NCBI RefSeq assembly: GCF_000196355.1
Contig: NC_007614.1
Coordinates: forward strand, 2,220,001-2,252,000
Source: Nitrosospira multiformis ATCC 25196
GTDB taxonomy: Bacteria; Pseudomonadota; Gammaproteobacteria; Burkholderiales; Nitrosomonadaceae
Direction of reading: 5' to 3'
Length of the DNA stretch: 32,000 nt
Each line of letters starts with the position of its first letter. The stretch's first letter is position 1. The notes below the pieces were generated by a model. It had not been told where the DNA came from and did no database searches. It saw only the letters and a program-made list of their open reading frames with translations. Below are positions 2,657 to 32,000 of the stretch, one piece after another. A program made the position numbers and the translations under genes.

Positions 2657-2711
2657 TTGTAATGTCTTTATTGAGGGCATAGAATAAAATCAGACTGATC
2701 GGTCTGTTTTT
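2657..2711 (+). promoter_or_regulatory. Sigma70-like promoter followed by a hairpin/palindrome at the predicted start site (candidate TetR operator or attenuator)
   Basis: TTGTAA (2657-2662), a 17-nt spacer, then TAGAAT (2680-2685). Next comes cagac-tgatcg-gtctg (2691-2706) plus T5 (2707-2711). The element lies about 30 nt upstream of the SD of the small ORF that precedes tetR. Confidence 0.35.
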
Positions 2712-2737
2712 GATGGCACTCTGGATGGAGGTGAATA

Positions 2738-2905: not shown

Positions 2906-2909
2906 GCCG

Positions 2910-3542: not shown

Positions 3543-3562
3543 TCGAATTACGGGAGAAGTCA

Positions 3563-4201
3563 ATGGATAGCATTTGGGCAAATTTATCGACAGGGATGCG
3601 GCGTTTTCTGGCTCTGATCGGATCTCTCGCGGTTATCGTGGCAGTCGGTTTGCAGTTTCACGTGAGCTCTCAGGGGGATCAGTCAAACACCTATCCGAAG
3701 GGTTTTCGCGGAGGCACATGCACCATAGAGTCCGACTCCCTGGTCATCGGCTATTCGGGTTATTTCATCCCAGGAGACTATGAAATCCCTGAAGACGCAA
3801 CAGGCGCGATGTCTGTCCCTGTCCTGTGCGGAAAAATACCCAGCCCCGGAGTTCTGGATGTCACGATTGATCTTCTTTATCCGGAATCGGCGCGCGAATG
3901 GCTGCTGACCATGGCGCTTACAAAAATGGAAGGCGGCATGCCATCGAACACACTGCTGGCGATTCCTTCGAGAACGTACGAGTCCGGCACCATTACCCAG
4001 GTATTGCGTATCGCCGAATTGGGGGAATACAGGCTTTATCTATCCGGCAAGGATCGGAATCAGACTGATTTCACGCTGGAAATCCCCATCACCGTGGGAA
4101 CGCCATGGTACGAGGGTGTTGCTCAATTCTGGCCCATGTTCGTTCTGATGGTGGCGGCAATTCTTTATCAGGCTTTCAGAAAACTCCGACTACTTAAATA
4201 A
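3563..4201 (+). CDS. Hypothetical protein with N- and C-terminal transmembrane segments and a roughly 150-aa exported middle domain
   Basis: 212 aa. Hydrophobic segments are FLALIGSLAVIVAVGL near the N-terminus and FWPMFVLMVAAILYQAF at the C-terminus. An SD (gggaga) precedes 3563, 20 nt after the tetR stop. I recognise no family. Confidence 0.55.
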   Translation: MDSIWANLSTGMRRFLALIGSLAVIVAVGLQFHVSSQGDQSNTYPKGFRGGTCTIESDSLVIGYSGYFIPGDYEIPEDATGAMSVPVLCGKIPSPGVLDVTIDLLYPESAREWLLTMALTKMEGGMPSNTLLAIPSRTYESGTITQVLRIAELGEYRLYLSGKDRNQTDFTLEIPITVGTPWYEGVAQFWPMFVLMVAAILYQAFRKLRLLK

Positions 4202-4223
4202 ATACAACCGGAGGATTCCCGGA

Positions 4224-5019
4224 ATGGCAGGTTATGTTGGCGATGTCGCCATTGCGTATGATCGCGATCTCGGGCCCGTGCTTTTCGAGCACTATGCTAT
4301 TGACATCGCAAGGCGCGCAACCGAAGGATCAGTCCGCCACATGCTTGAAATCGCGGCAGGGACGGGAATAGTCACCCGGCCAATTGCGTAACGTACTCCC
4401 CAAGGATGCGCTGCTTACGGCAGTCGACATCAGCGATTCCATGATGGACGTCGCGCGCGCAAAGTTTCTTCCCCACGAGCAGGTCACGTTCCAGGTTGCG
4501 GATGCTACGACATTGCCTTTCGAAAATGAGGCGTTCGATGCGGTGGTCTGCCAGTTCGGTGTGATGTTCTTCGATAAAGATACGGCATTTCGCGAGGCAT
4601 ACCGGACATTGGGGCGTGGAGGGCGCTACTTGTTCAGCGTCTGGGATTCGCGGCGCTATAATCCCTTTGCCAGTCTGGCTTTCGAAGTGCTGAAGCAGTT
4701 CTTTCCACTAAACCCGCCCAGATTCCTTGAGGCTCCCGTTTCCTCATTCGAGATCGATCCCATCAAGGAGGCGCTTATCCAATCAGGTTTCGAGCGGATT
4801 GTCATCTCGGTTCAGGGACGGGAACACGATATTCTGGATGTGCGGACCTTCGCGCGAGGGTTGGTGTTCAGTCCCGTCATCGAGGAAATCAGAGAGCGGG
4901 GCGGAGTGGAGCCGGAGGATATAATCGCGGCATTGGCGGAAGCACTGAAAAGAGAGTATGGCTCACGCCCTACGCGTTATCCAATGCAGGCCATACTGTT
5001 CGAGGCGGAAAAGCCTTGA
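4224..5019 (+). pseudogene. Class I SAM-dependent methyltransferase interrupted by a +1 frameshift near 4377-4381
   Basis: The frame from ATG 4224 (SD ggagga upstream) gives MAGYVGDVAIAYDRDLGPVLFEHYAIDIARRATEGSVRHMLEIAAGTGIVTRPIA*, with SAM motif I LEIAAGTG, and stops at 4389-4391. The protein continues in the next frame as (Q)LRNVLPKDALLTAVDISDSMMDVARAKF... to 5019. Removing one C from 'acccggcc' restores ...GIVTRQLRNVLPKD..., a normal single-domain enzyme. Confidence 0.75.
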
Positions 5020-5074
5020 GCTGCAATTCCGGTCACACTTCGCCAGGTTCGTCAGGTTCAGGAATTCATTCTCG

Positions 5075-11009: not shown

Positions 11010-12791
11010 CTAAACACCCCCGGGTATATAGGTGGGCGAGATGCGCGTGACGCGGGCGATTTGCTCAATGGGAATCTTGGGAGTACGATCCGCGCACAGC
11101 AGTCCGTTCGCTTCCTGAAAGGTATCGGCAAACTGGGTATAGCAAAAGCCGCTGAAGAGAGCCGTATGAATCACTGTATGCATCAACTCGGCATACATAC
11201 GCGCAAATTCCTCTTCGGCGTGGGCAACAGTATAGCCCCAAGTATGCTCGACGCCGGGTTGCGGGCACTTGGCGAAAGCAATCCCCCCGAATTCGCTTAA
11301 CATGATCGGCTGGCCTCGATGCGGGTAGCCATCAAGGGTGAGAATCCGCCCCCCCGGGCGCCGACGGTCGAACAACTGTTCAGGTTTTATTTCGGCGCCA
11401 TAACGCTGGCGCAGATGTTCAATGTTTGCGTCATAATCGTGAATACCGATGATATCCGTAGCACTGCTTTCCCATCCATCGTTGCCGATTACCGGGCGCG
11501 TCGCATCCAGGGTTTTGGTCAAGTGATATAGTGCCTCGACAGCGTGCCGCTGTTTACGGACCGCGGTAAGTTCCGGTACTCCCCAGGATTCATTGAAAGG
11601 TACCCATACAATGACGCAGGGATGGCTGTAATCCCGCTCGATGGCCTCCGTCCATTCCCGCACCATCCTCTTGATGGCGCTGCGGGTGAAGCGATATGCG
11701 GAAGGCATTTCTTCCCATACCATCAGCCCGAGCCTGTCCGCCCAATAAAGATAGCGCGGGTCCTCTATCTTTTGATGCTTGCGCACCCCGTTGAAGCCCA
11801 TTGCCTTTGCAAGTTCCACATCGCCTCGCAGGGCGTCGTCGCTTGGCGCAGCCAGCAGCGTCTCCGGCCAGTAGCCCTGGTCAAGCACGAGCCTCAGCGT
11901 GTAGGGACGACCGTTCAGCATGAAGCGGTCGCGCAGGATGTTGACGGAACGCATTGCAGTGTAGGAGATGAACTCGTCGACCACCTCCTCGCCCCGCATC
12001 AGTCGTACAACAGCATCGATCAAGGTGGGACGTTCCGGGCTCCATAGCAACTCATTACGAAAATCATCAATTCCAGGGTCAGACAATATGATGACGCGGT
12101 CTACTTCCCGTTCGACTACCCGATAGCGGTCATGCGCGAGCAACTGCTCCCCGTGGCGCAAGCATACGTCTACTGCCAGTTCGTCGGCCTCTTCTCCTAT
12201 TACGCGCGCTTCGAAGCCTATCGCATATATCTCGACCTGGGGCGTCCACCGAATCTTTTCAATGTAATTTTCGGATACCCGCTCGATCCAGACCATCTGC
12301 CAGATGCCAGTGGTACGGGGATACCAGATGGCATGAGGCTCGAGCTGCCAATCCTGCTTTCCACGCGGTTTGGCCAGCTCGTGCGGATCGTCCTCCACCT
12401 GTACCGTCACCTTCTGTTTTCCGGATGGATCGAGCAGAGGGGTGATGTCCCCCCAGAATGGAGTATGCCCCCCTTCGTGGCTGGCGGCAAAACGACCGTT
12501 GACCCATACCTTTGCGGAGTAGTCCACGGCACCGAAATGCAGGATTACCCGCTCCGAGGAGGGCTCGAAATCAAAATCGCGCTCATACCAGCAGAGTGAA
12601 TGAAAACTGCGGTCACCGATTCCGCTTGCCTCGGATTCGGGTGGAAACGGCACGATGATTTCCATCGGCCAGGATTCTATCTGAGAGGGGTGAGTAAAAG
12701 TACGCGCCTCGTCGTAGCGAAAGCGCCAGACTCCGTTGAGCGAGGTCCAATTGGAGCGCTGCATCTGCGGTCGAGGGTGCGCGAACTTCAA
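11010..12791 (-). CDS. Glycoside hydrolase family 2 (beta-galactosidase/beta-glucuronidase-like)
   Basis: 593 aa. The N-terminus is HPRPQMQRSNWTSLNGVWRF. The acid/base motif is FNESWG and the nucleophile region is MLSEFGG. The TTG start has AGGAGG 8 nt upstream. Confidence 0.85.
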   Translation of the reverse strand: MKFAHPRPQMQRSNWTSLNGVWRFRYDEARTFTHPSQIESWPMEIIVPFPPESEASGIGDRSFHSLCWYERDFDFEPSSERVILHFGAVDYSAKVWVNGRFAASHEGGHTPFWGDITPLLDPSGKQKVTVQVEDDPHELAKPRGKQDWQLEPHAIWYPRTTGIWQMVWIERVSENYIEKIRWTPQVEIYAIGFEARVIGEEADELAVDVCLRHGEQLLAHDRYRVVEREVDRVIILSDPGIDDFRNELLWSPERPTLIDAVVRLMRGEEVVDEFISYTAMRSVNILRDRFMLNGRPYTLRLVLDQGYWPETLLAAPSDDALRGDVELAKAMGFNGVRKHQKIEDPRYLYWADRLGLMVWEEMPSAYRFTRSAIKRMVREWTEAIERDYSHPCVIVWVPFNESWGVPELTAVRKQRHAVEALYHLTKTLDATRPVIGNDGWESSATDIIGIHDYDANIEHLRQRYGAEIKPEQLFDRRRPGGRILTLDGYPHRGQPIMLSEFGGIAFAKCPQPGVEHTWGYTVAHAEEEFARMYAELMHTVIHTALFSGFCYTQFADTFQEANGLLCADRTPKIPIEQIARVTRISPTYIPGGV

Positions 12792-12908
12792 TGCATTCTC
12801 CTCCTAAAGCGCTGCATGCTTGCTCGTCATTGGAGACGAGCGGCTACTCAGGTATGACTGATCTGATATCTGATGGGATAGAGGACTACAGGATAAGTAT
12901 AGTAGATA

Positions 12909-12968
12909 GCGACAGTCTCATCGACAATTGGCTTGGTTAACTCTTAGCCTCGATGAATCACTGTCGAC
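12909..12968. repeat. Imperfect inverted repeat (about 14-16 nt arms, about 25-nt spacer) just downstream of the tRNA-Ser 3' end
   Basis: gcgacagtctcatcgac (12909-12925) faces tcgatgaatcactgtcgac (12950-12968). The arms share gacagt..catcga. Confidence 0.6.
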
Positions 12969-12982
12969 TGCTTTGGGTGGGG

Positions 12983-13075
12983 TGGCGGAGAGAGAGGGAT
13001 TCGAACCCTCGATAAGCTTTTTGAGCCTATACTCCCTTAGCAGGGGAGCGCCTTCGACCACTCGGCCATCTCTCC
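12983..13075 (-). tRNA. tRNA-Ser (anticodon GCU)
   Basis: The minus strand reads GGAGAGATGGCCGAGTGGTCGAAGGCGCTCCCCTGCTAAGGGAG...long variable arm...GAGGGTTCGAATCCCTCTCTCTCCGCCA. The cloverleaf is complete, the anticodon loop is CT-GCT-AA, and the CCA is encoded. Confidence 0.95.
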
Positions 13076-13153
13076 AACAAAGCCGCACTAGGATAGCGGT
13101 TTAGAACTCCTGGGTCAAACAAAGGTTATGAAAGGGACCGGTAAGCGGAATAT

Positions 13154-14383
13154 TCATGATATCTGATCGAGTTCGAATACCTTGTGCAAGACACGTACCG
13201 CCAACTCCATGTATTTTTCATCCACGACTACTGAAATCTTGATTTCAGAGGTGGAGATCATCTGGATATTGATGCCCTCTTCGGCCAGCGTACGGAACAT
13301 TCTGCTGGCAATGCCCACATGCGAACGCATGCCGACGCCCACTACCGAGACTTTCGCGATTCTGTCGCCTCCGATCACACCCCGGGCACCGATATGAGGC
13401 TGCACCTGATTTTTCAGGATATCCATCGTTCTCGCAAATTCATTGCGATTCACGGTAAATGAAAAATCGGTCATGCCATCGTGGCCGACATTCTGGATGA
13501 TCATGTCTACATCGATATTTGCCTCCGCCACGGGACCGAGAATCTGATAGGCGATACCGGGACGGTCCGGCACACCCAGCACCGTAATCTTGGCTTCGTC
13601 ACGATTGAATGCGATGCCTGAAATAATCGCCCGTTCCATGTTTTTCTCTTCCTCGAAAGTGATGAGGGTACCTTCTCCTTCTTCCTCGAAACTGGAGAGC
13701 ACCCGCAATTTAACCTTGTATTTACCCGCGAACTCCACCGCGCGGATTTGCAGCACCTTGGAACCGAGGCTTGCCATTTCAAGCATTTCTTCAAAGGTAA
13801 CAGTCTTGAGTTTGCGCGCTTCGGGCACAATTCGGGGATCGGTCGTGTAAACTCCGTCTACATCCGTATAGATCTGGCATTCATCCGCCTTGAGCGCTGC
13901 CGCGAGGGCCACAGCCGTGGTGTCGGAACCTCCCCGGCCCAATGTTGTGATACTCCCCGCCTCGTCCACTCCCTGAAAGCCCGCTACTGCCACCACGTAT
14001 CCCGCATCGAGATCGGCGCGTATCCTGTCTTCATCGATTTTGAGTATGCGCGCCTTGGTATAGGCACTATCGGTGTGAATGCGCACCTGGGCACCGGTGT
14101 AGCTCTTCGCCTTGATGCCCAGATCCATCAGCGCCATTGACAGCAGAGCGACAGAAACCTGCTCCCCGGTGGAAACCATGACATCCAGCTCCCGGGGATC
14201 CGGATGGGCCTGGAATTCCCGGGCCAGCGCAATAAGACGATTTGTCTCTCCGCTCATGGCGGATACCACGACCACCACCCGATCGCCCCGGGCCTGGAAT
14301 CTCGCCACCCGGCGCGCAACATTCTTGATGCGCTCCGTGCTGCCCACCGATGTGCCGCCGTATTTTTGAACGATAAATGTCAC
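13154..14383 (-). CDS. lysC: Aspartate kinase
   Basis: [11 protein letters not shown] lies at the N-terminus and ACT domains at the C-terminus. I placed the start at GTG 14383 ([10 protein letters not shown]), which is typical for the family. The ORF-track TTG at 14422 would add 13 aa. Confidence 0.93.
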
Positions 14384-22654: not shown

Positions 22655-24862
22655 TCAACTCACTGCCTCGGTTTTTATTTTCCCCGCATCCTGGGCATTT
22701 TCAGCGAGCACGAAATCTATCTTGCTGGATTCCAGATCGACTCGAACCAGCCTGACTCTGAGCCGGTCACCCAGGCGGTAGCGCTTCCCCGTGCGCTCCC
22801 CCAGCAACATATGCCTGACCGCGTCAAAATGGAAATAATCGCTGGGCAGTTCTGAAACATGCACGAGTCCCTCGACATAAATTCCGTCCAGCGCCACAAA
22901 AAGACCAAAACCGGCGACCCCACTGACGACTCCCTCAAAGCATTCTCCGATTCTGTCCTGCATGTAATAGCACTTGAGCCACGCTTCGACATCGCGCGTG
23001 GCCTCGTCCGCGCGGCGCTCCGTCTGCGAACAATGCTCGCCCAGTTCGTGCCAGTTGCCGGGAGAGTATGCTGCCTTGTTCAGGACAGCCTTGATGGCTC
23101 GATGGACGAGGAGATCGGGATAACGCCTGATGGGGGATGTAAAGTGTGTATAGGATTCATAGGCCAGGCCGAAATGGCCAACGTTGTCGGGACTGTACAC
23201 TGCCTGGCGCAAGGATCGAAGCATCACGGTCTGCAACAGCTGCGCATCGGGCCGATCCTTTATTGTAGATAACGTACGAGCGTAATCTTTCGCCCTGGGG
23301 TTATCCCCCCCACCTAACTGAACACCGAATTCCTTGAGAAAATCACGCAGAGCGGCCAGTTTTTCCGGCGTCGGACCTTCATGGACCCGATAGAGAGTCG
23401 CCTGCTTGTGTTTCTGCAGAAAATCGGAGGCACATACATTGGCGGCGAGCATGCATTCTTCGATGATGCGATGCGCGTCGTTACGTTGTATCGGCAGGAT
23501 GCGCTCGATTTTGCCCTCATCGTTGAAGATCATGCGCGTTTCGATCGTTTCAAAATCAATTGCCCCCCGCAGATTTCGCGCTTTCAGCAATACCTTGAAT
23601 AATTTGTAGAGCAACTGGATGTGCGGCAAGAGATCCTTATATTGTTTCGCTTCCTCTCCCTTAGAATTCTCCAGCATGGCCGCCACTTTTGTATAGGTAA
23701 GCCGGGCGTGAGAAAACATGACTGCGGGATAAAAACGATAGCCCTTGAAGTCACCTGCAAAATCCAGGCTTATTTCGCACACCATGGATAAGCGATCTAC
23801 CTCCGGGTTGAGAGAACAGAGCCCGTTCGATAGCGCTTCCGGCAGCATGGGGATAACCCGCCGCGGAAAATAGACGGAATTTCCACGATTGTATGCCTCC
23901 TGATCGAGAGCGTCGCCCGGCTTTACATAATGGCTGACGTCGGCGATGGCGACATAAAGCTTGTAATCCTTTCCGTCACGCTCGCAATATACGGCGTCGT
24001 CGAAATCCCGGGCAGTTTCGCCGTCTATCGTCACCAGCGGAAGGTGACGAAGGTCTTCTCTCTTGATCAGGTCTTTTTTTAACACCTTGGATGGAAGACG
24101 TGCCGAAAGTTTTTCCACTTCCTGTGGAAACTGGTAAGGCAAGTCGTGCTTGCGAAGCGCGATTTCGATCTCCATTCCGGGGGCCGTGTAGTCGCCCAAA
24201 ATCTCGATGATGCGCCCAATAGGCTGGGCATGTTTACTCGGCTGCTGGAGGATTTCCACGATGACCACCTGGCCTGCCCTTGCATTCATCGATTCTTCTC
24301 GGGGAATCAGAATGTCCTGGCTGATACGTCTATTCTCCGCCTCCACGTAAAGAATTCCGTGATCCGCATGTAATCGTCCCACCAACTGCGTTACTGCGCG
24401 CTCCAGCACCTCTACGATGGCTCCCTCCCGGCGGCCTCGCCGGTCAACCCCGATTTCACGCACCATCACGCGGTCGCCATGCAGCGCCTTGCGCATTTCT
24501 TTGGCACTCAAAAACAAATCGGGACTGCCATCGTCAGGTATCAGAAAACCAAATTCATCCGGGTGACCCTGAACCTTGCCTTTGATAAGAGCGAGCTTCT
24601 CCACCATGCAGATATCGCCCTTCCGGTTGCGCATGATCTGGCCTTCGCGCAACATGGCAGAAAGACGGCGGCTGAAGATCTCGCCTTCTTCTTCGGTGAT
24701 TCCGAGCAGGTTCTGCAATGCTTCCTCGGGTACGGGAACGCCTTGCTCTTCGAGTATCTGGAGTATGAATTCCCGGCTAGGCAGCGCATGCCCATAATGC
24801 TCTTTTTCCCGTTCAAGATAAGGGTCAAGCTTGCGGAGCTTTTGTTTCTTCTTGATTGTCAA
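22655..24862 (-). CDS. rnr: Ribonuclease R
   Basis: The N-terminus is HTH/cold-shock-like. The RNB domain reads TIDGETARDFDDAVY. The C-terminal S1 domain reads EGVVSGVAGFGLFVAL. The TTG start has AGGAAA upstream. Confidence 0.95.
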   Translation of the reverse strand: MTIKKKQKLRKLDPYLEREKEHYGHALPSREFILQILEEQGVPVPEEALQNLLGITEEEGEIFSRRLSAMLREGQIMRNRKGDICMVEKLALIKGKVQGHPDEFGFLIPDDGSPDLFLSAKEMRKALHGDRVMVREIGVDRRGRREGAIVEVLERAVTQLVGRLHADHGILYVEAENRRISQDILIPREESMNARAGQVVIVEILQQPSKHAQPIGRIIEILGDYTAPGMEIEIALRKHDLPYQFPQEVEKLSARLPSKVLKKDLIKREDLRHLPLVTIDGETARDFDDAVYCERDGKDYKLYVAIADVSHYVKPGDALDQEAYNRGNSVYFPRRVIPMLPEALSNGLCSLNPEVDRLSMVCEISLDFAGDFKGYRFYPAVMFSHARLTYTKVAAMLENSKGEEAKQYKDLLPHIQLLYKLFKVLLKARNLRGAIDFETIETRMIFNDEGKIERILPIQRNDAHRIIEECMLAANVCASDFLQKHKQATLYRVHEGPTPEKLAALRDFLKEFGVQLGGGDNPRAKDYARTLSTIKDRPDAQLLQTVMLRSLRQAVYSPDNVGHFGLAYESYTHFTSPIRRYPDLLVHRAIKAVLNKAAYSPGNWHELGEHCSQTERRADEATRDVEAWLKCYYMQDRIGECFEGVVSGVAGFGLFVALDGIYVEGLVHVSELPSDYFHFDAVRHMLLGERTGKRYRLGDRLRVRLVRVDLESSKIDFVLAENAQDAGKIKTEAVS

Positions 24863-24918
24863 AGCTGATTTCCTATAGAATTGCGCCTCTGTCCCATCGT
24901 TGGACAGATTCGCTCATT

Positions 24919-25005
24919 GCCCAGATGGCGGAATTGGTAGACGCACTAGGTTCAGGTCCTAGCGGTGGCAACACTGTGGAGGTTCGAGTCCTCTTCTGGG
25001 CACCA
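24919..25005 (+). tRNA. tRNA-Leu (anticodon CAG)
   Basis: GCCCAGATGGCGGAATTGGTAGACGCACTAGGTTCAGGTCCTAG...GGAGGTTCGAGTCCTCTTCTGGGCACCA. The anticodon loop is TT-CAG-GT, the variable arm is long, and the CCA is encoded. Confidence 0.95.
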
Positions 25006-25189
25006 ATCAAAACATTTCCGCAGATTCCACCTGTACTGACTGTACCGGCCCAAAAGGCACAAGGAGTGCTGCTTTTCTCAGTATAGCAGGACAGCGCATC
25101 GCATTCCGGAATTACCCCTGCTATCCCTTTTCCCCTTAGTTACGCTCAGGCTCTGCGGTGCGATTTTAGCCAGAAGATGCCAAGGAATA

Positions 25190-25215
25190 GATAGCTGTAA
25201 AATTTTACAGCTATC
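25190..25215. promoter_or_regulatory. 26-bp perfect palindrome with a CTG-N10-CAG core (lux-box-like)
   Basis: GATAGCTGTAAAA|TTTTACAGCTATC is exactly self-complementary. The inner 20 bp AGCTGTAAAATTTTACAGCT matches 14/20 positions of the V. fischeri lux box ACCTGTAGGATCGTACAGGT as I remember it. Confidence 0.5.
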
Positions 25216-25672
25216 CACGCCCTGCGATCTGTTGTCTCATAACATGCTCCTGTGCCAAAAGAAATGAGACTCTGACTACCGCAACAGGTTGTCTTGCTGC
25301 ACATGAATGACGCTTTGGCGAATCCGGAAGGCAATGTGTTTCATCCGACACCAGAAGGCGCAGGTAGGCATGCTCGATAAGCTGATTGGGATAACTGGCT
25401 GGTAAAGTGAATCCGATTCTCGCCGTTAAAGACTTGTGTTCAAGAAGTCCAGCTTGCGTTTCTATCATGATCCGTAAATATATTCCAGCTGGGCTGTTAT
25501 CTTTGGTTACGAACTCTGGCAAGGGATCCAATAAGGCGAAAACAACGAGATTCTACCGGGAAAGCAAGGATATTCTGACGAAAATCCCTGCTGGCACGCC
25601 GCTCGAATTATCCCCTCCGGGGGCGATTTTAAATTCTTTCGACTTGAATTACAGTTGCTTGAGCTCATCCAG

Positions 25673-26455
25673 ATGAACGATATTGTGACCGCCTTTAACG
25701 AATATTTCGAAGTTGTCGACGCCGACACTCCGGAGCGATTGCAGGATGTATTTCGCCTTCGTTACCAAGTGCTCTGTATCGAGCAGCGTCTGCCTGGATT
25801 TGAAGCTTCACGCTATCCTGATGGGTGCGAATGTGACAGTTACGATGCTCATTCCTCTCATATGCTTCTTCGTCACCGTCCATCCGGCGATTTTGTCGGA
25901 ACCGCTCGCCTGATACTCCCGGATCCGCTGACTCCCGAAAAACCCTTTCCTATCGAACAGCATGCGCAACTGGATCCATTTTTCAATATCAACCGGTTAC
26001 CTCGGCAACATGCAGCCGAAGTATCTCGCCTGCTCGTCGTACGCCGATTCAGGCGGCGTAAAGGGGATAGCGGCGGGCCAGAAAATGAAATAGTTGTTGA
26101 AGACAGAGCTATAGAAAAACCACGCCGCTTCCCTCACCCGGTCCTCGCGCTTGCTGTTGGCCTGATCCGCATGTCCGCTGCTCATCACATAACTCATTGG
26201 CTATCGATCATGGACCCTGCCCTGAACAGGCTGTTAACCCTCTATGGGCTCCAGCACGATCCCGTGGGCCCATTGATTGAGCATCACGGTCAGCGTCGAC
26301 CTTATCACGTCGACTTGTCCGCCATGTTGAACAGAATGCATGAAAGTCATCCTCTGATTTGGGAACTTGTTACTGATTTCGGCAGGAGCCTGCCAGCACC
26401 TCCAGGGTCGGCTCCAGTACCTATCTCCACCGTTCTTGCTGATATTGAAAAATAA
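25673..26455 (+). CDS. LuxI-superfamily/GNAT acyltransferase resembling the PEP-CTERM/exosortase-associated N-acyl amino acid synthase family
   Basis: FNEYFEVVDADT...VFRLRYQVLCIEQ...E.DSYD.HS.HMLLRHRPSGDFVGTARL...AAEVSRLLVVRRFRRR fits the pattern I recall for the exosortase-associated acyltransferase family (TIGR03694-like). I chose the start at ATG 25673; the ORF track uses TTG 25655. Confidence 0.7.
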   Translation: MNDIVTAFNEYFEVVDADTPERLQDVFRLRYQVLCIEQRLPGFEASRYPDGCECDSYDAHSSHMLLRHRPSGDFVGTARLILPDPLTPEKPFPIEQHAQLDPFFNINRLPRQHAAEVSRLLVVRRFRRRKGDSGGPENEIVVEDRAIEKPRRFPHPVLALAVGLIRMSAAHHITHWLSIMDPALNRLLTLYGLQHDPVGPLIEHHGQRRPYHVDLSAMLNRMHESHPLIWELVTDFGRSLPAPPGSAPVPISTVLADIEK

Positions 26456-26609
26456 TAATCGCATATTCGCGGCCCTTCATCTAGCCCGCCTTCGCGAGTT
26501 ATCGTCTATCGCTAGTTCTCATTCCGAAAGTCCAAACACTCGATCCCCGCAAGGATAAGACTGCTCAAACCATTCAAGCACGCATATTCCTGTCGGGTGA
26601 GTAAAAATT

Positions 26610-27059
26610 GTGACAATTAAAATAAAAATCGGTCATCTGATTTCGTCTATATGCCTGCTACTCGGCCTTTTATTCATGGCGGGTAAAACGTGCGCAGTCG
26701 AGCCCTACGAGATCATCACGAACTCGGGCGTCCACGAAAAAACCCTTTCCAAGAACGCCTTGCGCGCCATATTCGGCATGCGCCTGCATACATGGCCGGA
26801 CGGCAGTCCCATTCATGTGTTCGTACTTCCGGATGAAGCCCCCCTGCACATCGCGTTCTCCAAGGAAAAACTGAATGTTTTTCCCTATCAACTCCGCGCA
26901 GCATGGGACCGGCTGGTGTTCTCGGGTACAGGACAGGCACCGGAAACAGTCGCTTCTCCAGAGGAGATGCTTGCAAAAGTCGGTAGCACACCCGGAGCAA
27001 TTGGCTATTTAACCCGATCCAGAATGGATGGCAGTGTAAATGTTCTACACGTCAAGTAA
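26610..27059 (+). CDS. Small secreted PstS/PBP-like-2 domain protein (149 aa, about half the size of a periplasmic binding protein)
   Basis: The signal peptide is ...LLGLLFMAGKTCA|VEP. LRAIFGMRLHTWPDGSPIHVF...VGSTPGAIGYL fits the phosphate-binding-protein-like fold motif (PGAIGY). The start codon is GTG. Confidence 0.7.
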   Translation: MTIKIKIGHLISSICLLLGLLFMAGKTCAVEPYEIITNSGVHEKTLSKNALRAIFGMRLHTWPDGSPIHVFVLPDEAPLHIAFSKEKLNVFPYQLRAAWDRLVFSGTGQAPETVASPEEMLAKVGSTPGAIGYLTRSRMDGSVNVLHVK

Positions 27060-28287
27060 CCCCATTCCCCGCTGTTTGACGCGAGCGATTATCCGGCTCG
27101 TCGTGGTGGGTGCTGCCCTTTCGAATTGTATTGCTTACGCGCAAAAACTGCCGATTCCCCAGAACCTGCCGAACAACCTGCAAATACATGGTTTTGTTAG
27201 CCAGAGTTGGCTCAAGAGCACGGACAACAATAACGTTTTCGGGAAAAGCAGTTCCGATAGTGGAAGTTTTGACTTCAGGGAATTGGGACTGAATGCTTCC
27301 ATGAGGCCCAAGCCCAACCTCCAGTTTTCGGCTCAGATGATTTCCCGCACTGCGGGAAAAGGAAGTCCGGGCAATATCCGGTTCGATTACGGATTCATCG
27401 ATTATGCGTTTCTATCGGAAGAAAACAGCAAGATAGGAATACGCCTGGGCAGGATGAAGAATCCGCTCGGCTTTTACAACGACACACGCGACGTTCCCTT
27501 CACGCGGCCCAGCATACTTTTACCTCAATCCATCTACTTCGATCGCACGCGCAAATTGGGGATTGCAGCAGATGGGGTACATTTATACGGTGAATACCGT
27601 TTCGAGCACGGCGTCCTGTCTTTTCAGGGTGGACCGGTACGTCCACTAGTCAGAGGTGCTGAAGCAGAAGTAGCGCTGTTGGGCCAGGGGATGCCAGGCC
27701 ATCTTGCTCCAGACATCTCCTATATTGGCCGTATAAGCTACGAACTCGACGAGGGCCGGCTTCGTTTTGCAGTCAGCGGAACGAATTTGAACATAGATTA
27801 TGACCCCGCAAGCGGGGACCGGCTTGGCGCGGGCTCAATTCGCTTTACACCTCTCATTTTCTCCGCGCAATATAACGCAGAACGCTGGAGTTTCACTTCG
27901 GAATACGCGATACGCCATTTCGAATATAAAAATTTTGGCAGGGCGGCCCTCAATCTGGATTTCTTTGGCGAAAGCTATTACCTTCAGGGAGCTTATCGAA
28001 TCACGCCGGAATTGGAAGCGATCGCTCGCTACGACGTACTGTATACGGACAGTAATGACCGCAGCGGAAAAAAATGGGCAGCGGCTACAGGCGGCGATCC
28101 GCATCGGCGGTTTGCTAAAGACATTACCGTAGGGTTGCGCTGGAACGTCACGCCTGAGTTCATGTTGCGCGCCGAGTATCACCGCGTGAACGGAACAGGC
28201 TGGCTTTCGACTCTTGACAATCCCAATTCGGGAGACCTTTCACCGCATTGGAATCTGTTTTCCATTCTCGGCTCCTACCGGTTCTAG
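27040..28287 (+). CDS. Outer-membrane beta-barrel (porin-like) protein
   Basis: The signal peptide ends ...AALSNCIAYA|Q. Alternating beta-strand-like sequence runs throughout. The C-terminal signature is ...LGSYRF. ATG 27040 overlaps the upstream gene by 20 nt. In-frame TTG 27076 would give a more typical signal peptide. Confidence 0.7.
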   Translation: MFYTSSNPIPRCLTRAIIRLVVVGAALSNCIAYAQKLPIPQNLPNNLQIHGFVSQSWLKSTDNNNVFGKSSSDSGSFDFRELGLNASMRPKPNLQFSAQMISRTAGKGSPGNIRFDYGFIDYAFLSEENSKIGIRLGRMKNPLGFYNDTRDVPFTRPSILLPQSIYFDRTRKLGIAADGVHLYGEYRFEHGVLSFQGGPVRPLVRGAEAEVALLGQGMPGHLAPDISYIGRISYELDEGRLRFAVSGTNLNIDYDPASGDRLGAGSIRFTPLIFSAQYNAERWSFTSEYAIRHFEYKNFGRAALNLDFFGESYYLQGAYRITPELEAIARYDVLYTDSNDRSGKKWAAATGGDPHRRFAKDITVGLRWNVTPEFMLRAEYHRVNGTGWLSTLDNPNSGDLSPHWNLFSILGSYRF

Positions 28288-28289
28288 AC

Positions 28290-31217
28290 ATGCTGCAGGA
28301 TAAGTATTTTCATAATCAGGCTATGCAGAGAAATGGAGCGATAGCACCTGAAAAGCCCCAAAAATTTCTGGGACTGAAATGGAAAGTTTTGTTGCTGAGC
28401 AGCCTTATACTGATTGCCATCGTAGTCTCATTCACTGGGATTACCTATCTGAGCCTGATGGATGACTTCGAGAGCCAGAGAAATGCCCAGCACCAGCGCT
28501 ATGCCAAGGAAGTTGAAGGACTGATCGACCAGGTTTCGATAAATTTGCATCAACTCGCCGGATTGATTCCTTTCCTGGAAGGAATGGATAAAAGTCTGCT
28601 CTCAGGTAACAAGGAATACGTCACCCAAGCATTTGATCCATATTGGTCGCCTTTGCAACTCAATAAAGGTATCGAATTGCTGCGTTTTTACGATAGCTCA
28701 AACCAGCAATTGGCAGGATGGGGAACTTCCCAGCCTAATACTTACGACGCATTGATGTCAGCCTGGGTGCACGAGGTGAATGCCCAGGAAAAGCCGATGA
28801 GCCATCTCAGCTGCCCCACCAGCTGCATGCAGTTTGCCGTGGCACCCTTGCTCGTGGAAGGTAACAACGTCGGCGTGATCGTCATCGGAACGCCCCTGGT
28901 CGATGTGATTCTGGGTTTCAAGGATATCTCGGGTGCCGATATCGCATTGCTGGTGAGGGAAAAAGGCGATTTGCCCGAAAGCAACAAGGTGAAAATTGCA
29001 AACTGGGATGTCACGCTTGCGGCACACAGCAGGGAAATGAACATTACTGTTCTGGATGAAGTTGCAGCGAATTATCCGGACCTGGAGAGTCTGGAGGAGG
29101 GCATCCTGGTTTCGTGGCACGATAGACACCTCCAGATAAAGCCGCTGTTTCTGGAGAGAATGGCCGTGTCGGAAGATGGTGCTCGCTTCATGGTTGTAAC
29201 TGACATCACCTCCACGATCCGCACCATTCACAGCTCGACCCAGCAAAACATGATAATCGGCGTGGTCGGGCTCATATTCTCTGAAATACTGCTGTTCATC
29301 ATTCTCACCAAGCCACTGTCGAGGCTCAAGCACATCGTTTTTACTCTCCCTCTTCTGGCCCGCAGCAGTTTCAAGAATTTTCGCCTGGAGCTTCGCTCTG
29401 CCGGCCAGAAACGATGGATGAAAGATGAAATTGACCTGCTGGATGAAACAGCGGTGGCCCTGTCACATCAACTGGAGAAGCTCGAGGATCAGGTGGCGGA
29501 CAGGACCCGTATACTGGCCAGCAAGATGGACGAGCTAAGCAAGGAGAGGGATTTCATTAACAATCTGCTGGACATTGCGCAAGTAATCGTAATCACGCAA
29601 AAGGCGGATGGCGAGATTCTCACACTCAATGCCTATGGTGAAACGCTTATTCAGTATACGGAAAAAGAACTGCAGGGAACGCCCTTTCTCCATCTTCTGG
29701 CACTCGATGGAAATCTGCACGACCTTCCCGTTCACCTGGAAGAGGTGCGGTGCCAACGAAGAGACCAGCTTCGGCACGAAGCGAATGTCGTATGCAAGGA
29801 TGCTTCCATTCGTAATATTCTGTGGCTGCATTCACGCCTCACCCGGCACAGCGAGGATGACCCCGCAATGTTATCGGTGGGTCTCGACATGACGGAACAC
29901 AAGCGTGCTGAAGGGCGTCTTGCCTGGCTGGCGGATCATGATCCGCTCACGGATCTTTTCAATCGCCGCCGCTTCCAGGAAGAACTGGAACAGATGCTGA
30001 ATCTTGCCGCGCGTTACGGGTACTCGGGAGCCTTGCTCTTTTTTGACCTTGATCAGTTCAAATACATCAACGATACCAGCGGGCATCAGGCGGGGGATGC
30101 CTTGCTTAAAATGGTCGCGCGTCTGCTGCTTGGCAATATTCGCAGCGTCGACATACTTGGCCGCCTGGGAGGCGATGAATTCGCAGTGATTTTGCCCCAA
30201 ACGACAGCCGAAGGGGCGATAGAAGTGGCAAAAAATACGCTTGCGAGCCTGAATCAGGGAAAGATTACGATAAATGGTCGCACTCATAAAGCGTCAGCCA
30301 GCGTCGGTATCGCACTTTTTCCGGAGCACGGCAGCAATGTCCATGATCTCCTGGCCGCAGCCGATCTCGCCATGTATCAGGCAAAGGAAGCCGGACGAGG
30401 AGGATGGCATTTGTTTTCTGACGAAGAGAAAACACGTGAACGCATGCATACTCTTGTCTATTGGAAGGAGAAGATTGAGTATGCTCTTTCACACGAACGT
30501 TTCCTGTTCTATTTCCAGCCCATCATGCATGTTCGACGCAGGACCATCGATCATTACGAGGTGCTGCTTCGCATGATCGACAATGATGGAACTGTTCTTG
30601 CACCCCAGTTTTTCATCCCCGCCGCGGAACAGACAGGTCTTATTCATGCCATCGACCATATGGTTTTACGTAAATCCATTGCGCAATCAGCTGAAATACA
30701 ACGCGCCGGTCAGTGCATCCGTTTTTCCATAAACTTGTCGGCGCATGCATTTCACGATCCGGAACTGCTGCCGATACTGAAAGATGCATTTGCCGAGTAT
30801 GGCGCGGATCCATCGAATTTCATGTTTGAAATAACCGAGACAGCAGCGCTTGAGGATTTGCCCGCGGCGCGGGAACTCATGGAGATGATTAAAAAGCTGG
30901 GCTGCAGTTTCACGCTGGATGATTTCGGTGTCGGTTTCTCCTCCTTCTATTACATCCGGCAACTGCCGATCGATGTTGTAAAGATCGATGGCTCCTTCAT
31001 ACGAAATCTGGCAGACAGCCCCGATGACCAAATACTGGTGCAGGCTTTGTGCGATGTGGCAAGGGGATTCGGAAAGAAGACAACGGCGGAGTTCGTGGAA
31101 AATGCAGCGACCTTTTCAATCCTTGAGAAAATGCAGATCGACTATGCCCAGGGATTTTTGATTGGAACGCCTTCTCCCGCTTATGACACATCGTTCAGCG
31201 ATTTCGCGAAGATGTGA
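28290..31217 (+). CDS. Transmembrane sensor with periplasmic domain, PAS, GGDEF and EAL domains (dual diguanylate cyclase/phosphodiesterase)
   Basis: TM1 is VLLLSSLILIAIVVSF, followed by a periplasmic region of about 270 aa and TM2 IIGVVGLIFSEILLFIIL. The GGDEF motif is intact (RLGGDEFAV), with the I-site RSVD 5 aa upstream. EAL motifs are EVLLR, FQPI, EITE, DDFGVGFSS, KIDGSF and QGF. I chose the start at ATG 28290, 2 nt after the porin stop; the ORF track uses 28248. Confidence 0.9.
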   Translation: MLQDKYFHNQAMQRNGAIAPEKPQKFLGLKWKVLLLSSLILIAIVVSFTGITYLSLMDDFESQRNAQHQRYAKEVEGLIDQVSINLHQLAGLIPFLEGMDKSLLSGNKEYVTQAFDPYWSPLQLNKGIELLRFYDSSNQQLAGWGTSQPNTYDALMSAWVHEVNAQEKPMSHLSCPTSCMQFAVAPLLVEGNNVGVIVIGTPLVDVILGFKDISGADIALLVREKGDLPESNKVKIANWDVTLAAHSREMNITVLDEVAANYPDLESLEEGILVSWHDRHLQIKPLFLERMAVSEDGARFMVVTDITSTIRTIHSSTQQNMIIGVVGLIFSEILLFIILTKPLSRLKHIVFTLPLLARSSFKNFRLELRSAGQKRWMKDEIDLLDETAVALSHQLEKLEDQVADRTRILASKMDELSKERDFINNLLDIAQVIVITQKADGEILTLNAYGETLIQYTEKELQGTPFLHLLALDGNLHDLPVHLEEVRCQRRDQLRHEANVVCKDASIRNILWLHSRLTRHSEDDPAMLSVGLDMTEHKRAEGRLAWLADHDPLTDLFNRRRFQEELEQMLNLAARYGYSGALLFFDLDQFKYINDTSGHQAGDALLKMVARLLLGNIRSVDILGRLGGDEFAVILPQTTAEGAIEVAKNTLASLNQGKITINGRTHKASASVGIALFPEHGSNVHDLLAAADLAMYQAKEAGRGGWHLFSDEEKTRERMHTLVYWKEKIEYALSHERFLFYFQPIMHVRRRTIDHYEVLLRMIDNDGTVLAPQFFIPAAEQTGLIHAIDHMVLRKSIAQSAEIQRAGQCIRFSINLSAHAFHDPELLPILKDAFAEYGADPSNFMFEITETAALEDLPAARELMEMIKKLGCSFTLDDFGVGFSSFYYIRQLPIDVVKIDGSFIRNLADSPDDQILVQALCDVARGFGKKTTAEFVENAATFSILEKMQIDYAQGFLIGTPSPAYDTSFSDFAKM

Positions 31218-31311: not shown

Positions 31312-32000
31312 TCACGCTTCATCCGGCTCGGGATCATCCGCAAACTCCACTTTTGGCTCGCTATCTGACGGGCCCTCTTCCTGACCTTCCCTAGGGCCAG
31401 TGTGGCCGGGAATTTTTGGAGTTGTGCACGCAACATCCGCGTTTTGTGCCCTATTGCGCAGCGCATGGTCCATCAATACCAGCGCCAGCATTGCTTCCGC
31501 AATGGGCGTAGCCCGGATACCGACACAGGGGTCATGTCTTCCATGAGTTTCCACTATTGCCGGATTGCCCATCTTGTCTACTGAGCGGCGCGGCAGACGT
31601 ATGCTTGAAGTGGGCTTGACGGCGATATTCACCACGATATCCTGACCGGTGGAAATCCCGCCCAATATGCCTCCCGCATTATTGCTGAGAAAACCCCCGG
31701 GACTGATTTCATCGGAGTGCTCCGTTCCCTTCTGACTTACAGAAGCAAATCCAGCTCCGATTTCGACGCCTTTAACGGCGTTGATGCTCATCATGCCATA
31801 GGCGATTTCGGCATCGAGGCGATCATATACAGGTTCGCCCCACCCCACGGGCACACCTTCGGCAACCACACGAATCCTGGCGCCCACCGAGTCGCCCGAT
31901 TTCCGCAGTTTGTCCATGAATTCTTCCAGGCTGGGCACGATGTCCGGGTCAGCCGAAAAAAAGGGATTCTCACCCACTGCTTCCCATTGTTTGAATGGAA
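31312..32000 (-). CDS. aroC: Chorismate synthase (C-terminal part; the 5' end lies beyond the window)
   Basis: The sequence contains [19 protein letters not shown] and [16 protein letters not shown]. The frame stays open to position 32000. Confidence 0.93.

Follow-up and report, generated by a model that had tools for sequence, protein, structure and literature searches.

The locus raises the question of whether an acyltransferase gene of Nitrosospira multiformis ATCC 25196 and the three-gene operon downstream of it form one circuit, in which a self-made signal is converted into c-di-GMP turnover, or are neighbours with separate tasks. The window, i.e., the whole stretch of 32,000 nucleotides analysed here, carries all four ORFs on the + strand between 25655 and 31217, as originally predicted, and profile searches of the four proteins bore out the domain assignments that had been made from the letters alone. 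The boundaries were also correctly placed in Nitrosospira: on the left lies a tRNA-Leu(CAG) (24919..25005, +), detected by ARAGORN and matched by the Rfam tRNA family with 53.8 bits, and on the right aroC, encoding chorismate synthase (31312..32000, -), which continues beyond the window end; Chorismate_synt occupies the same position in N. briensis. The genes do not, however, fill this interval, because about 650 nt after the tRNA (25006..25654) contain no gene or RNA family recognised by Pfam or Rfam: the Rfam search gave zero family matches, the ORFs 25211-25531 (-) and 25407-25676 (+) had no Pfam match, and a convincing sigma-54 or sigma-70 site was not found. This region differs among N. 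multiformis strains through insertions and deletions, and positions 25200-25600 share 39-60% identity with the corresponding DNA of loci L007 and L009.

The first gene (25655..26455, +; TTG start at 25655 or ATG at 25673) is predicted to encode an acyltransferase of the N-acyl amino acid synthase (NAS) type from the LuxI/GNAT superfamily, with 301.6 bits on TIGR03694 (cut-off 112) and 53.4 bits on Acetyltransf_5. On the profile of the LuxI family itself (Autoind_synth), it reached 20 bits, under the cut-off of 24. The closest solved relative is the LuxI-type synthase RpaI (6wn0, E 3e-5), and a weak similarity to the ornithine-lipid enzyme OlsB was also detected. A search for hydrophobic segments found none, and the enzyme is therefore probably cytoplasmic. 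Craig, Cherry and Brady reportedly described the PEP-CTERM/exosortase-associated N-acyl amino acid synthases, TIGR03694, in 2011. Two reports summarise the production of long-chain N-acyl amino acids by members of this family on expression in E. coli (PMC9762135, PMC4897644), and the physiological role of such members has been called unclear (PMC4897644). In Methylomonas LW13, a mutant in a PEP-CTERM-associated synthase lacked a polysaccharide band (PMC11072679), which we count in favour of a signal circuit.

The 154-nt gap described downstream of this gene was confirmed (26456..26609); it lies inside the swapped cassette discussed below, and a scan for terminator-like sites found none in it. 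The equivalent spacer in Nitrosomonas loci measures roughly 0-35 nt or is replaced by an overlap of the ORFs. The gene that follows (26610..27059, +) is predicted to encode a secreted, single-lobe (lobe II) PstS-like periplasmic protein of 149 amino acids, with a signal peptide at the N-terminus that ends in an AxA-type site and a mature form of about 120 amino acids. Its PBP_like_2 match covers only profile positions 96-187 of 267 (26.9 bits against a cut-off of 27) and PDB PstS chains align with it over PstS residues ~84-204; because of this partial coverage, the binder is taken as one lobe of a two-lobe binding protein. PstS-type proteins are its only detectable relatives, from which it differs in having lobe II only and in scoring at or below the family threshold. 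At E<=1e-30, the binder family numbers 231 representative clusters, of which nearly all have 130-200 amino acids. Structure prediction of the binder was unreliable (pLDDT 49.6). No ABC transporter genes, as in phosphate uptake, were adjacent to the operon. A single lobe cannot close on a ligand like two-lobe binding proteins do, which argues against a signal circuit.

The third gene (27040..28287, +) encodes a protein of 415 amino acids with a signal peptide and a C-terminus ending in YRF. It overlaps the binder gene by 20 nt and, with the likely sensor start, is separated from the sensor gene by 2 nt, in agreement with the tight operon junctions described originally. Porin_O_P matches the protein weakly and over only the C-terminal quarter of the profile. 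The AlphaFold2 model (pLDDT 79.6, pTM 0.77) is a barrel of 16 strands, for which Foldseek returned Omp32, PorB, OmpF, and OprP with E-values of 1e-13 to 1e-10; OprP gave both the best Pfam match and the top query-normalised TM-score (0.60, 2o4v). The claim of an outer-membrane beta-barrel thus stands, with the fold specified by the model as that of a general or anion porin, and a long near-invariant segment at residues ~141-175 is possibly a constriction loop. The model is not that of a FadL/OmpW-type lipid channel. It is doubtful that the barrel conducts a hydrophobic acylated signal, as was proposed, because the porin fold is not among the folds known to carry hydrophobic molecules; a hydrophilic channel of the modelled kind would be a poor route for a long-chain lipid, and this too argues against a signal circuit.

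These properties of the porin and the binder bring in a different reading, which we regard as unlikely. The pair would capture an exogenous hydrophilic solute, e.g., an anion, and report it to the GGDEF-EAL enzyme, while the acyltransferase would be a co-selected output or partner and not the signal source, its product being, e.g., a biosurfactant or aminolipid for the same matrix or floc programme. The modelled porin fold fits hydrophilic solutes, and the nearest families of binder and porin are those of phosphate uptake (PstS, OprP). However, the phosphate-binding Ser-Gly-Thr motif of PstS was absent from the binder alignments at both candidate positions, the mapping of which is uncertain.

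The last and largest gene (28248..31217, +) is predicted to encode an inner-membrane c-di-GMP enzyme with the order transmembrane segment, dCache_3, transmembrane segment, linker, PAS, GGDEF, and EAL. Translation could begin at TTG 28248 (989 amino acids) or at ATG 28290, 2 nt past the barrel stop; the latter is the likely start and gives 975 amino acids. The periplasmic domain of the original prediction was found between the two transmembrane or hydrophobic segments and could be refined to dCache_3 (28485..29141, +; PF14827, 65.5 bits; residues 80-298 of the 989-amino acid form). The PAS match is weak. The GGDEF domain (29931..30398, +; PF00990, 162.9 bits) retains an intact GGDEF motif together with an RxxD I-site; it contains RSVDILGRLGGDEF, in which RSVD-x5-GGDEF represents the I-site plus the active site. 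The EAL domain (30471..31172, +; PF00563, 228.3 bits) retains the catalytic motifs EVLLR, EITE, DDFG, KID, EFVE, and QGF. In a test of four motifs on 62 full-length homologues, GG[DE]EF, I-site plus GG[DE]EF, E[AVI]LxR, and DDFG were all present in every sequence (62/62).

The link between the acyltransferase and the operon was initially drawn from adjacency. The simplest objection is that the adjacency reflects shared ancestry or chance and that the acyltransferase serves only a distant PEP-CTERM/exosortase system. TIGR03694 was defined through co-occurrence with exosortase genomes, EpsH is present elsewhere in the genomes of N. multiformis and N. europaea, and the 154-nt spacer lies within a recombination cassette, all of which would fit this objection. 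No exosortase gene was found nearby in the annotated contexts, including the 32-kb window. The published link of these synthases with exosortase is one of phylogenetic co-occurrence, whereas here a full-score member of the family has a c-di-GMP sensor operon as its physical neighbour.

Comparison of loci revealed that the synthase gene was adjacent to binder-porin-sensor in all 78 informative genome loci, i.e., those with enough upstream DNA, and in each of them (78/78) a TIGR03694 homologue lay directly upstream on the same strand; an adjacent synthase was also found in 49 of 57 informative metagenome loci, although the loci in these counts are not phylogenetically independent samples. The genome loci came from Nitrosospira, Nitrosovibrio, Nitrosomonas, one Sideroxydans, and one Burkholderiales MAG, and a single family, Nitrosomonadaceae, accounts for most of the sampled loci, a point in favour of mere shared ancestry. 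The flanking genes rnr and aroC are kept only in Nitrosospira and Nitrosovibrio, and because other lineages have other flanks, the linkage is not merely inherited synteny. In addition, at least five kinds of arrangement were found (upstream, downstream, divergent, convergent, and tandem copies): Halomonas sp. PA16-9 has the order binder-porin-sensor-TIGR03694, locus L099 has sensor-binder-porin with a convergent TIGR03694 gene, L100 has TIGR03694 divergent from the operon, and in seven loci the synthase is present as two or three tandem copies. In three loci (L097, L156, and L176), a FeeM-family N-acyl amino acid synthase stands in place of TIGR03694, the L097 enzyme scoring 101 bits on PF21926 with no TIGR03694 match; the conserved feature is the kind of enzyme. 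Co-conservation, differing flanks, and several gene orders and strands across Beta- and Gammaproteobacteria therefore back the link, and the permuted orders in Gammaproteobacteria and the substitution by another synthase family leave the absence of a functional link strongly disfavoured already and very improbable in our estimate. The same observations weigh against the capture of an external solute: one would not expect an unrelated effector to remain adjacent through at least five rearrangements, even in opposite-strand arrangements without co-transcription, or to give way to another synthase family with the same chemistry.

The linkage is strong and rearrangement-proof, yet not universal. 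Eight informative metagenome operons, plus L098, have no adjacent synthase, L133 has binder-porin-synthase with the sensor not nearby, and an Alteromonas plasmid carries TIGR03694 without the operon; each of these cases argues against a signal circuit. So do more distant porin and half-binder pairs, which lack a synthase and have chemoreceptors and other c-di-GMP enzymes as their partners: in Pseudomonas, Massilia, Burkholderia, and Caballeronia, such pairs accompany chemoreceptors, cyclases, and EAL proteins, and in Pseudoalteromonas and Alteromonas no transducer was identified for them. Both the eight close operons and these distant pairs are as expected if the porin and binder report an external solute.

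Comparison between strains revealed a divergence island over the acyltransferase gene and its 3' spacer (~25700..26600, with edges resolved to about 50 nt for strains Nl7 and Nl18). DNA identity to Nl7, Nl18, and MAG L007 was 62-68% inside the island against 90-98% in its flanks. Between strains, the acyltransferase gene had a dS of 2.2-2.4 and a dN of 0.27 (dN/dS ~0.1), as compared to a dS of 0.18-0.23 for the three downstream genes. Among pairs with sensors at least 95% identical, synthase identity was bimodal, either 62-65% or 87-99%. This pattern shows that the synthase gene and its 3' spacer are exchanged as a cassette between closely related strains, and that the island consists of old alleles exchanged through recombination; such a cassette-swap, bimodal pattern is typical of signal or recognition loci. 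Between ATCC 25196 and Nl7, identity is ~63% for the synthase as against 98% for the mature binder and 98% for the periplasmic domain of the sensor, and receptor specificity therefore does not obviously track the synthase allele, a point against a signal circuit. This near-identity across the swap is a further point for an external solute as the ligand.

The original prediction knew of no characterised system with this composition, and thereby overlooked ScrABC of Vibrio parahaemolyticus, as well as NspS-MbaA and RpfF-RpfR. In ScrABC, a single operon holds the genes for a signal synthase, a periplasmic binding protein, and a GGDEF-EAL enzyme, and the binder-signal complex toggles the membrane GGDEF-EAL enzyme between cyclase and phosphodiesterase (PMC11315295; PMC8050422, Table 1). 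The likeness lies in an extracellular-signal enzyme, a periplasmic binder, and a GGDEF-EAL protein with a dCache-like periplasmic domain at one locus. The parts differ, with no family common to binder and ScrB or to synthase and ScrA in the comparison of these two pairs: ScrA is of the aminotransferase type and the synthase studied here an acyltransferase of the LuxI/GNAT type, ScrB has both lobes of an SBP_bac_3 protein and the binder a single PstS-like lobe, and ScrABC lacks a porin gene. In NspS-MbaA of Vibrio cholerae and Sinorhizobium meliloti, a periplasmic binder encoded next to a GGDEF-EAL gene likewise controls the bifunctional output, and hence biofilm; the binder, NspS, is of the two-lobe PotD-like kind with a polyamine as ligand, a porin gene is lacking at the locus, and the cited papers mention no gene for a signal synthase there (PMC8079147, PMC8967002, PMC9993111). 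A further precedent is LuxP, which binds the dCache-like domain of LuxQ (PMC8050422). In the BDSF system of Burkholderia cenocepacia, the gene of the lipid-signal synthase RpfF adjoins that of the PAS-GGDEF-EAL receptor RpfR (PMC6361424, PMC3703271). There too, the signal is converted directly into c-di-GMP turnover, but the signal is a cis-2 fatty acid made by RpfF, which belongs to the crotonase family. The PAS domain by which RpfR directly senses the signal is cytoplasmic, and the system has neither periplasmic binder nor porin.

In Pseudomonas and E. coli, the operon of the YfiBNR (TpbB) system combines genes for an outer-membrane protein, a small regulator in the periplasm, and a cyclase in the inner membrane. 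A reading that resembles YfiBNR or RcsF-porin stress sensors, and that we consider quite improbable, would have the acyltransferase make a membrane aminolipid or lyso-lipid instead of a diffusible signal, with the porin-binder pair monitoring lipid status in the outer membrane or periplasm and feeding back on c-di-GMP. The layout over three compartments is like that of YfiB, YfiR, and YfiN, the similarity to OlsB and the partitioning of long-chain N-acyl amino acids into membranes are consistent with it, and binder, porin, and synthase stay together without the sensor in L133. However, YfiB belongs with the OmpA/Pal-like lipoproteins, YfiR with DUF4154, and YfiN lacks an EAL domain, and none of these families was matched in the module: the Pfam search gave no YfiR/DUF4154 match for the binder, and the barrel is not of the OmpA/Pal lipoprotein type. 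YfiBNR also lacks a signal synthase, and it is simpler to account for the replacement of the synthase cassette with a social signal than with a housekeeping lipid.

We therefore give roughly even chances to the four genes being a ScrABC-like circuit from quorum signal to c-di-GMP, assembled from non-homologous parts. The cytoplasmic TIGR03694 enzyme would use acyl-ACP and an amino acid to make an N-acyl amino acid or a closely related N-acyl amide, which would exit the cell. The product of the cell itself or of its neighbours would then enter the periplasm, possibly via the dedicated porin, and would there be the putative ligand of the single-lobe PstS-like protein, which might bind it on its own, as a dimer, or jointly with the dCache_3 domain. 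With information presumably flowing from product to binder to sensor, the loaded binder would alter the dCache_3-PAS-GGDEF-EAL enzyme and shift the balance of c-di-GMP synthesis and breakdown, the sign of this response being only inferred, and this balance would decide between matrix or floc formation and dispersal. Because the synthase gene nearly always adjoins the genes of the porin, the half-size binder, and the c-di-GMP enzyme, these results suggest that ammonia-oxidising bacteria, and some of their relatives, couple a self-made chemical signal directly to the control of biofilms.

All four of the expected co-oriented open reading frames are present in the interval that tRNA-Leu(CAG) at 24919-25005 and minus-strand aroC (from 31312) enclose. 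The first, starting at 25655 or 25673 and ending at 26455, encodes a TIGR03694-type acyltransferase and is separated by a 154-nt gap, without a terminator-like site, from the second (26610-27059), which encodes a protein with a signal peptide and a partial PBP_like_2 match (the binder). The third (27040-28287) overlaps the second by 20 nt and encodes a barrel with a C-terminal ...YRF, while the fourth, starting either at ATG 28290, 2 nt past the barrel stop, or at TTG 28248, and running to 31217, encodes a sensor with the order transmembrane segment, dCache_3, transmembrane segment, PAS, GGDEF and EAL. The remaining window is occupied by housekeeping genes: metG, a GH2/galT/galK group, the genes for aspartokinase and PhoH and, by synteny, dnaB, rpsF-priB-rpsR-rplI, rlmB and rnr. 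No exosortase or PEP-CTERM locus was found within the 32-kb window; EpsH homologues of N. multiformis (Nmul_A2521) and N. europaea (NE1797) are listed elsewhere in those genomes (Haft et al., 2006). The stretch of approximately 650 nt on the 3' side of the tRNA (25006-25654) showed no recognisable gene or RNA; its 106-aa ORF (25211-25531, minus strand) had no family match, and the small ORFs of the tRNA-synthase spacer and of related loci gave zero Pfam matches. This stretch is indel-variable among strains, with 39-60% identity at 25200-25600 to the homologous loci L007 and L009 and, since it adjoins a tRNA, it may be the remnant of an integration or recombination site. An Rfam search over 24800-27100 returned the tRNA only, with no riboswitch or other RNA family; sigma-70 and terminator scans gave no more sites than shuffled sequence, and the sigma-54 consensus was neither enriched in the window nor conserved upstream of the synthase (1 of 78 loci).

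Profile searches confirmed the first product as an acyltransferase, a full-score member of TIGR03694 (301.6 bits, with a cut-off of 111.95; residues 12-245 align to positions 2-239 of a 241-position profile), the family named PEP-CTERM/exosortase system-associated acyltransferase (N-acyl amino acid synthase). The protein also matches Acetyltransf_5, is sub-threshold for FeeM, and no hydrophobic segment was found in it. A LuxI-type AHL synthase was rejected, as Autoind_synth (PF00765) reached 20.0 bits against a cut-off of 24 over the N-terminal 60 residues only. The nearest solved relative by sequence was the LuxI-type synthase RpaI (6wn0, E 3e-5), and the kinship with LuxI lies at superfamily level only. 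Production of N-acyl amino acids with long chains is reported for other TIGR03694 members in passages of PMC9762135 and PMC4897644 that cite Craig 2011, and the physiological role of these synthases was still described as "not clear" in a 2016 paper (PMC4897644).

At the other end of the gene group, domain search bore out the predicted layout and motifs of a GGDEF (with I-site)-EAL-PAS sensor with a periplasmic domain (GGDEF 162.9 bits, EAL 228.3 bits). Relative to the residues that define a bifunctional enzyme (GGDEF plus an RxxD I-site; EAL residues ExLxR, N, ExxE, DDFG, KxD, E and Q), the window sensor carries RSVD-x5-GGDEF, EVLLR, EITE, DDFG, KID, EFVE and QGF, and the four motifs tested across homologues were present in 62/62 full-length sequences; the I-site and the GGDEF and EAL catalytic motifs are intact. 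The periplasmic domain matches dCache_3 (PF14827; 65.5 bits with the cut-off at 25.7, over residues 80-298 of the 989-aa form) and lies between two hydrophobic segments, which in the 975-aa form span residues 26-58 and 319-346. Judged from its sequence, gene 4 encodes an ordinary bifunctional-type GGDEF-EAL protein with dCache_3 input. A sensor split into two ORFs was observed in one homologous locus (L017, 11467-14542), where a pseudogene or a MAG assembly error is possible. An MscS-type mechanosensitive channel gene lies directly 3' of the sensor in two unrelated contexts (loci L087/L088; locus L098, 9644-12562).

The binder is, as proposed originally, a half-size secreted PstS-like protein, with a signal peptide included in its 149 aa and a one-lobe match to PBP_like_2. 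The two-lobe PstS/PBP_like_2 architecture was rejected, with profile positions 96-187 of 267 alone matched and 26.9 bits against a cut-off of 27. Because of this partial match, and because PstS structures align with the binder over their residues ~84-204, it represents just one lobe, lobe II, of a binding protein that normally has two. The motif R-x3-SGTGQAP is invariant in the binder, and two mappings onto PstS chains placed the canonical phosphate site of lobe II, Arg ... Ser-Gly-Thr, at other residues; an AlphaFold2 model built from 23 close homologues was unreliable (pLDDT 49.6). At E<=1e-30 the family comprises 231 representative clusters (50% identity), a figure that rises to 1475 at E<=1e-10; it is consistently short, nearly all of the best 150 members having 130-200 aa.

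The AlphaFold2 model of the third product (pLDDT 79.6, pTM 0.77) has 16 strands in a predicted porin fold, in agreement with the expected outer-membrane beta-barrel, and a near-invariant long segment (...NPLGFYNDTRDVPFTRPSILLPQSIYFDRTR...) lies between strands 5 and 6. In Foldseek comparisons the model grouped with the general/anion-selective porins Omp32, PorB, OmpF and OprP (E 1e-13 to 1e-10). A FadL- or OmpW-type channel for hydrophobic compounds was rejected, since the model does not group with these. This grouping makes the carriage of long-chain lipids by the barrel less plausible, and the original view of the barrel as the conduit of a hydrophobic acylated signal is weakened. The OprO/OprP profile (PF07396) was matched at 26.6 bits against a cut-off of 20.9, but at positions 239-346 of 370 only; it matched 14 of 25 barrel homologues, and OprP is one among many porins resembling the model. 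Genes 2 and 3 are not strict members of PstS or OprP, and PDB sequence searches gave nothing useful for the barrel or the periplasmic sensor domain. In locus L079 (10775-11386) the barrel is truncated, which may reflect a pseudogene or a MAG assembly error. The fold of the barrel is compatible with a rival explanation, namely that porin and binder together detect a hydrophilic solute from outside and that the synthase acts as a co-selected effector.

The linkage of the synthase, formerly deduced from adjacency alone, is now supported by co-conservation of the acyltransferase and the operon formed by genes 2-4 in 78/78 genome and 49/57 metagenome informative loci; the sampled loci come mostly from one bacterial family and are not independent of each other. 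The genome sample was obtained by a binder-alignment scan of one genome per species, which found relatives in 435 species genomes; among the best 80 loci kept, all 78 with enough upstream DNA had, on the same strand, a TIGR03694 homologue as the immediate upstream neighbour. Flanking rnr and aroC were restricted to Nitrosospira and Nitrosovibrio, and other flanks were found in Nitrosomonas, in one Sideroxydans and one Burkholderiales MAG, and in further MAGs. Roughly 0-35 nt separate the synthase stop from the binder start in Nitrosomonas, which gives the four genes the look of a single operon there. Two or three tandem synthase copies precede the operon in L058 (2015-5892), L062, L072, L082 and L086-L088, and in the five loci compared these copies were mutually 76-83% identical; such loci occur in some freshwater and groundwater lineages. 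Immediately upstream of the module in L001 (6206-9050; MAG GCA_040960315.1) lie a canonical LuxR/LuxI pair, an unknown protein of 141 aa and a stand-alone EAL protein; two types of acyl-signal synthase and two c-di-GMP enzymes are clustered there.

Other arrangements were also detected. The order is binder-porin-sensor-TIGR03694 in Halomonas sp. PA16-9 (Gammaproteobacteria; synthase 192.9 bits), sensor-binder-porin with a convergent TIGR03694 gene in L099, and binder-porin-sensor with a divergent one in L100. At the gammaproteobacterial-type loci L097 (14688-15404), L156 and L176 (both 12698-13420), binder, porin and sensor are followed by a FeeM-family synthase, which in L097 scored 101 bits with PF21926 and had zero TIGR03694 match; the enzyme type is kept in these three loci and the family has changed. 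In the metagenome sample, from a scan seeded with distant binders, the synthase was upstream in 46 of the 57 informative loci, downstream in three and absent in eight, and the five synthase-less operons that were annotated had unrelated housekeeping flanks. Clustering of barrel sequences placed every locus with an upstream synthase in one large clade, and the other arrangements and the synthase-less operons in more distant clusters. Conversely, TIGR03694 occurs without the operon on an Alteromonas mediterranea plasmid. The stable core is therefore the three-gene operon, to which the synthase is linked frequently but not obligatorily. A rival explanation, that synthase and operon have no functional link, is now strongly disfavoured. 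The 6.4-kb contig L133 carries binder, porin and acyltransferase (2299-5034) with no GGDEF-EAL sensor, flanked by genes for a TonB-like protein, an FAD oxidase and a ThiF-nitroreductase protein. On this hint, the closest tie of the synthase may be with the pair of porin and binder.

More distant binders (28-31% identity, 135-145 aa) also adjoin porins, on plasmids and in various gene orders; the loci L092-L096 and L091 belong, respectively, to plasmids of Burkholderia, Massilia, Pseudoalteromonas, Caballeronia, Pseudomonas aeruginosa and Alteromonas. No synthase or acyltransferase was found at these six loci, and four of them also adjoin a chemoreceptor, cyclase or large EAL protein: a chemoreceptor on the P. 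aeruginosa plasmid, a chemoreceptor and a cyclase in Massilia, and an EAL protein of ~1090 aa in Burkholderia and Caballeronia. No transducer was identified at the Pseudoalteromonas and Alteromonas loci, whose binders have either a porin or an unassigned protein beside them. Since the distant pairs adjoin transducers of other outputs, the combination of porin and single-lobe binder looks like a general, undescribed input device, of which the synthase-linked operons are one branch. On the Alteromonas macleodii plasmid pKD01 (L091, 8052-12333), a type IV CRISPR-Cas cluster (csf1-5) lies beside the half-binder and porin-like pair, a proximity that is probably incidental.

Comparison among close relatives revealed an island of divergence at ~25700-26600, covering gene 1 and its 3' spacer, with 62-68% DNA identity to the N. 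multiformis-group loci L006-L008, whereas the flanks and the operon were 90-98% identical to the same genomes; a shallower island (74-80%) was seen against a fourth genome (L009). Synonymous divergence was saturated in the synthase (dS 2.2-2.4) and was 0.18-0.23 in the three downstream genes, with a synthase dN/dS of ~0.1. The variants are therefore old, functional alleles that homologous recombination has exchanged as a cassette between close strains, not products of fast local evolution or decay. Bimodal values of synthase identity (62-65% or 87-99%) were found among all locus pairs with sensors at least 95% identical, also in Nitrosomonas (L041 compared with L071, L079 and L084). No locus pair had a synthase identity more than 8 points above its sensor identity, as recent inter-species transfer would produce.

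In some pairs, the raised divergence reaches into the binder and the 3' half of the porin gene and, to a weaker degree, into the periplasmic domain of the sensor. Among pairs with cytoplasmic sensor regions at least 93% identical, mean identities of binder, porin and periplasmic domain were, respectively, 88.6, 81.8, and 87.1% for different-allele pairs and 95.2, 91.9, and 91.9% for same-allele pairs, in groups that also differ in background divergence and consist of non-independent pairs. ATCC 25196 and the N. multiformis-group strain Nl7 provide a counter-example, with synthases ~63% identical and both mature binders and periplasmic domains 98% identical. For these reasons co-diversification with the synthase allele is suggestive but confounded, and co-evolution is not claimed.

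The best-supported interpretation of this computational analysis is a circuit that resembles the ScrABC system of Vibrio parahaemolyticus in its working. An N-acyl amino acid would be the synthase product; its detection in the periplasm would fall to the single-lobe binder, perhaps with the dCache_3 domain as partner, and the GGDEF-EAL enzyme would turn detection into c-di-GMP turnover. The analysis itself shows the parts with their motifs and export signals, the predicted porin fold, the linkage and the allele replacement, whereas we infer which ligand is bound, what the porin does and which sign the response has. Quorum-sensing synthase-receptor pairs typically remain adjacent, in tandem, convergent or divergent orientation, and tend to diversify as alleles. 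The ScrABC-like interpretation is supported by both habits, by the use of dCache-like domains as docking sites for binding proteins in LuxP-LuxQ and NspS-MbaA (PMC8050422, PMC8079147), and by the precedent of RpfF-RpfR, where a lipid-signal synthase lies beside its GGDEF-EAL receptor (PMC6361424). In ScrABC, the S-signal made by ScrA is bound by periplasmic ScrB, and the resulting complex turns the GGDEF-EAL protein ScrC from a cyclase into a phosphodiesterase (PMC11315295; PMC8050422). Both systems encode together a synthase, a periplasmic binder and a GGDEF-EAL enzyme with a dCache-like periplasmic domain. However, the window synthase and binder have no match to the aminotransferase (ScrA) or SBP_bac_3 (ScrB) families, and ScrABC lacks the dedicated porin and the single-lobe binder that the window module has; the likeness is in way of working, not ancestry. 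A further rival is that the module monitors envelope lipids in a manner resembling YfiBNR, with which it shares the layout of outer-membrane, periplasmic and inner-membrane components, but the window binder has no DUF4154 (YfiR) match at E<=0.1 and the barrel is a 415-aa porin fold without a lipobox, unlike the OmpA/Pal-like lipoprotein YfiB.

The circuit logic is already known from ScrABC, which the original remark that no characterised system of this composition was known overlooks. As far as checked, three things are undescribed: how the module is composed, how broadly it is conserved in nitrifiers, and the way in which its synthase alleles behave as cassettes. A literature search, which excluded the 2011 paper defining the synthase-exosortase link, found no work linking N-acyl amino acid synthases with GGDEF/c-di-GMP enzymes, nor any on such synthases with exosortase and diguanylate cyclase, and neither porins nor the outer membrane come up in a review from 2021 on receptors that depend on binding proteins.

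For the PEP-CTERM-associated N-acyl amino acid synthases, whose physiological role has been a question since 2011, this locus offers a concrete, testable partner: a dedicated sensing route from the periplasm to c-di-GMP. Very few circuits that lead directly from a self-made signal to c-di-GMP turnover are known (ScrABC, RpfF-RpfR), and to these it would contribute a new chemistry and an architecture of four parts. More broadly, the pair of porin and single-lobe binder beside transducers of several kinds points to sensory input devices of a class not recognised so far. The cassette-like replacement of synthase alleles suggests strain-level social structure. A bolder and, in our judgement, rather unlikely reading is that the swapped alleles are signal "dialects", so that the differing N-acyl amino acids of strains set c-di-GMP in kin only. 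If true, these would act via porin, half-binder and dCache_3 as a pherotype system wired straight to a second messenger instead of a transcription factor, and the porin and single-lobe binder would be a general, undescribed input for chemoreceptors and c-di-GMP enzymes across Proteobacteria. The module occurs in ammonia oxidisers, which drive the nitrification of soils and wastewater plants, settings in which the formation of flocs and biofilms has practical weight, and such dialects would mean strain-level control of both within one nitrifier species.
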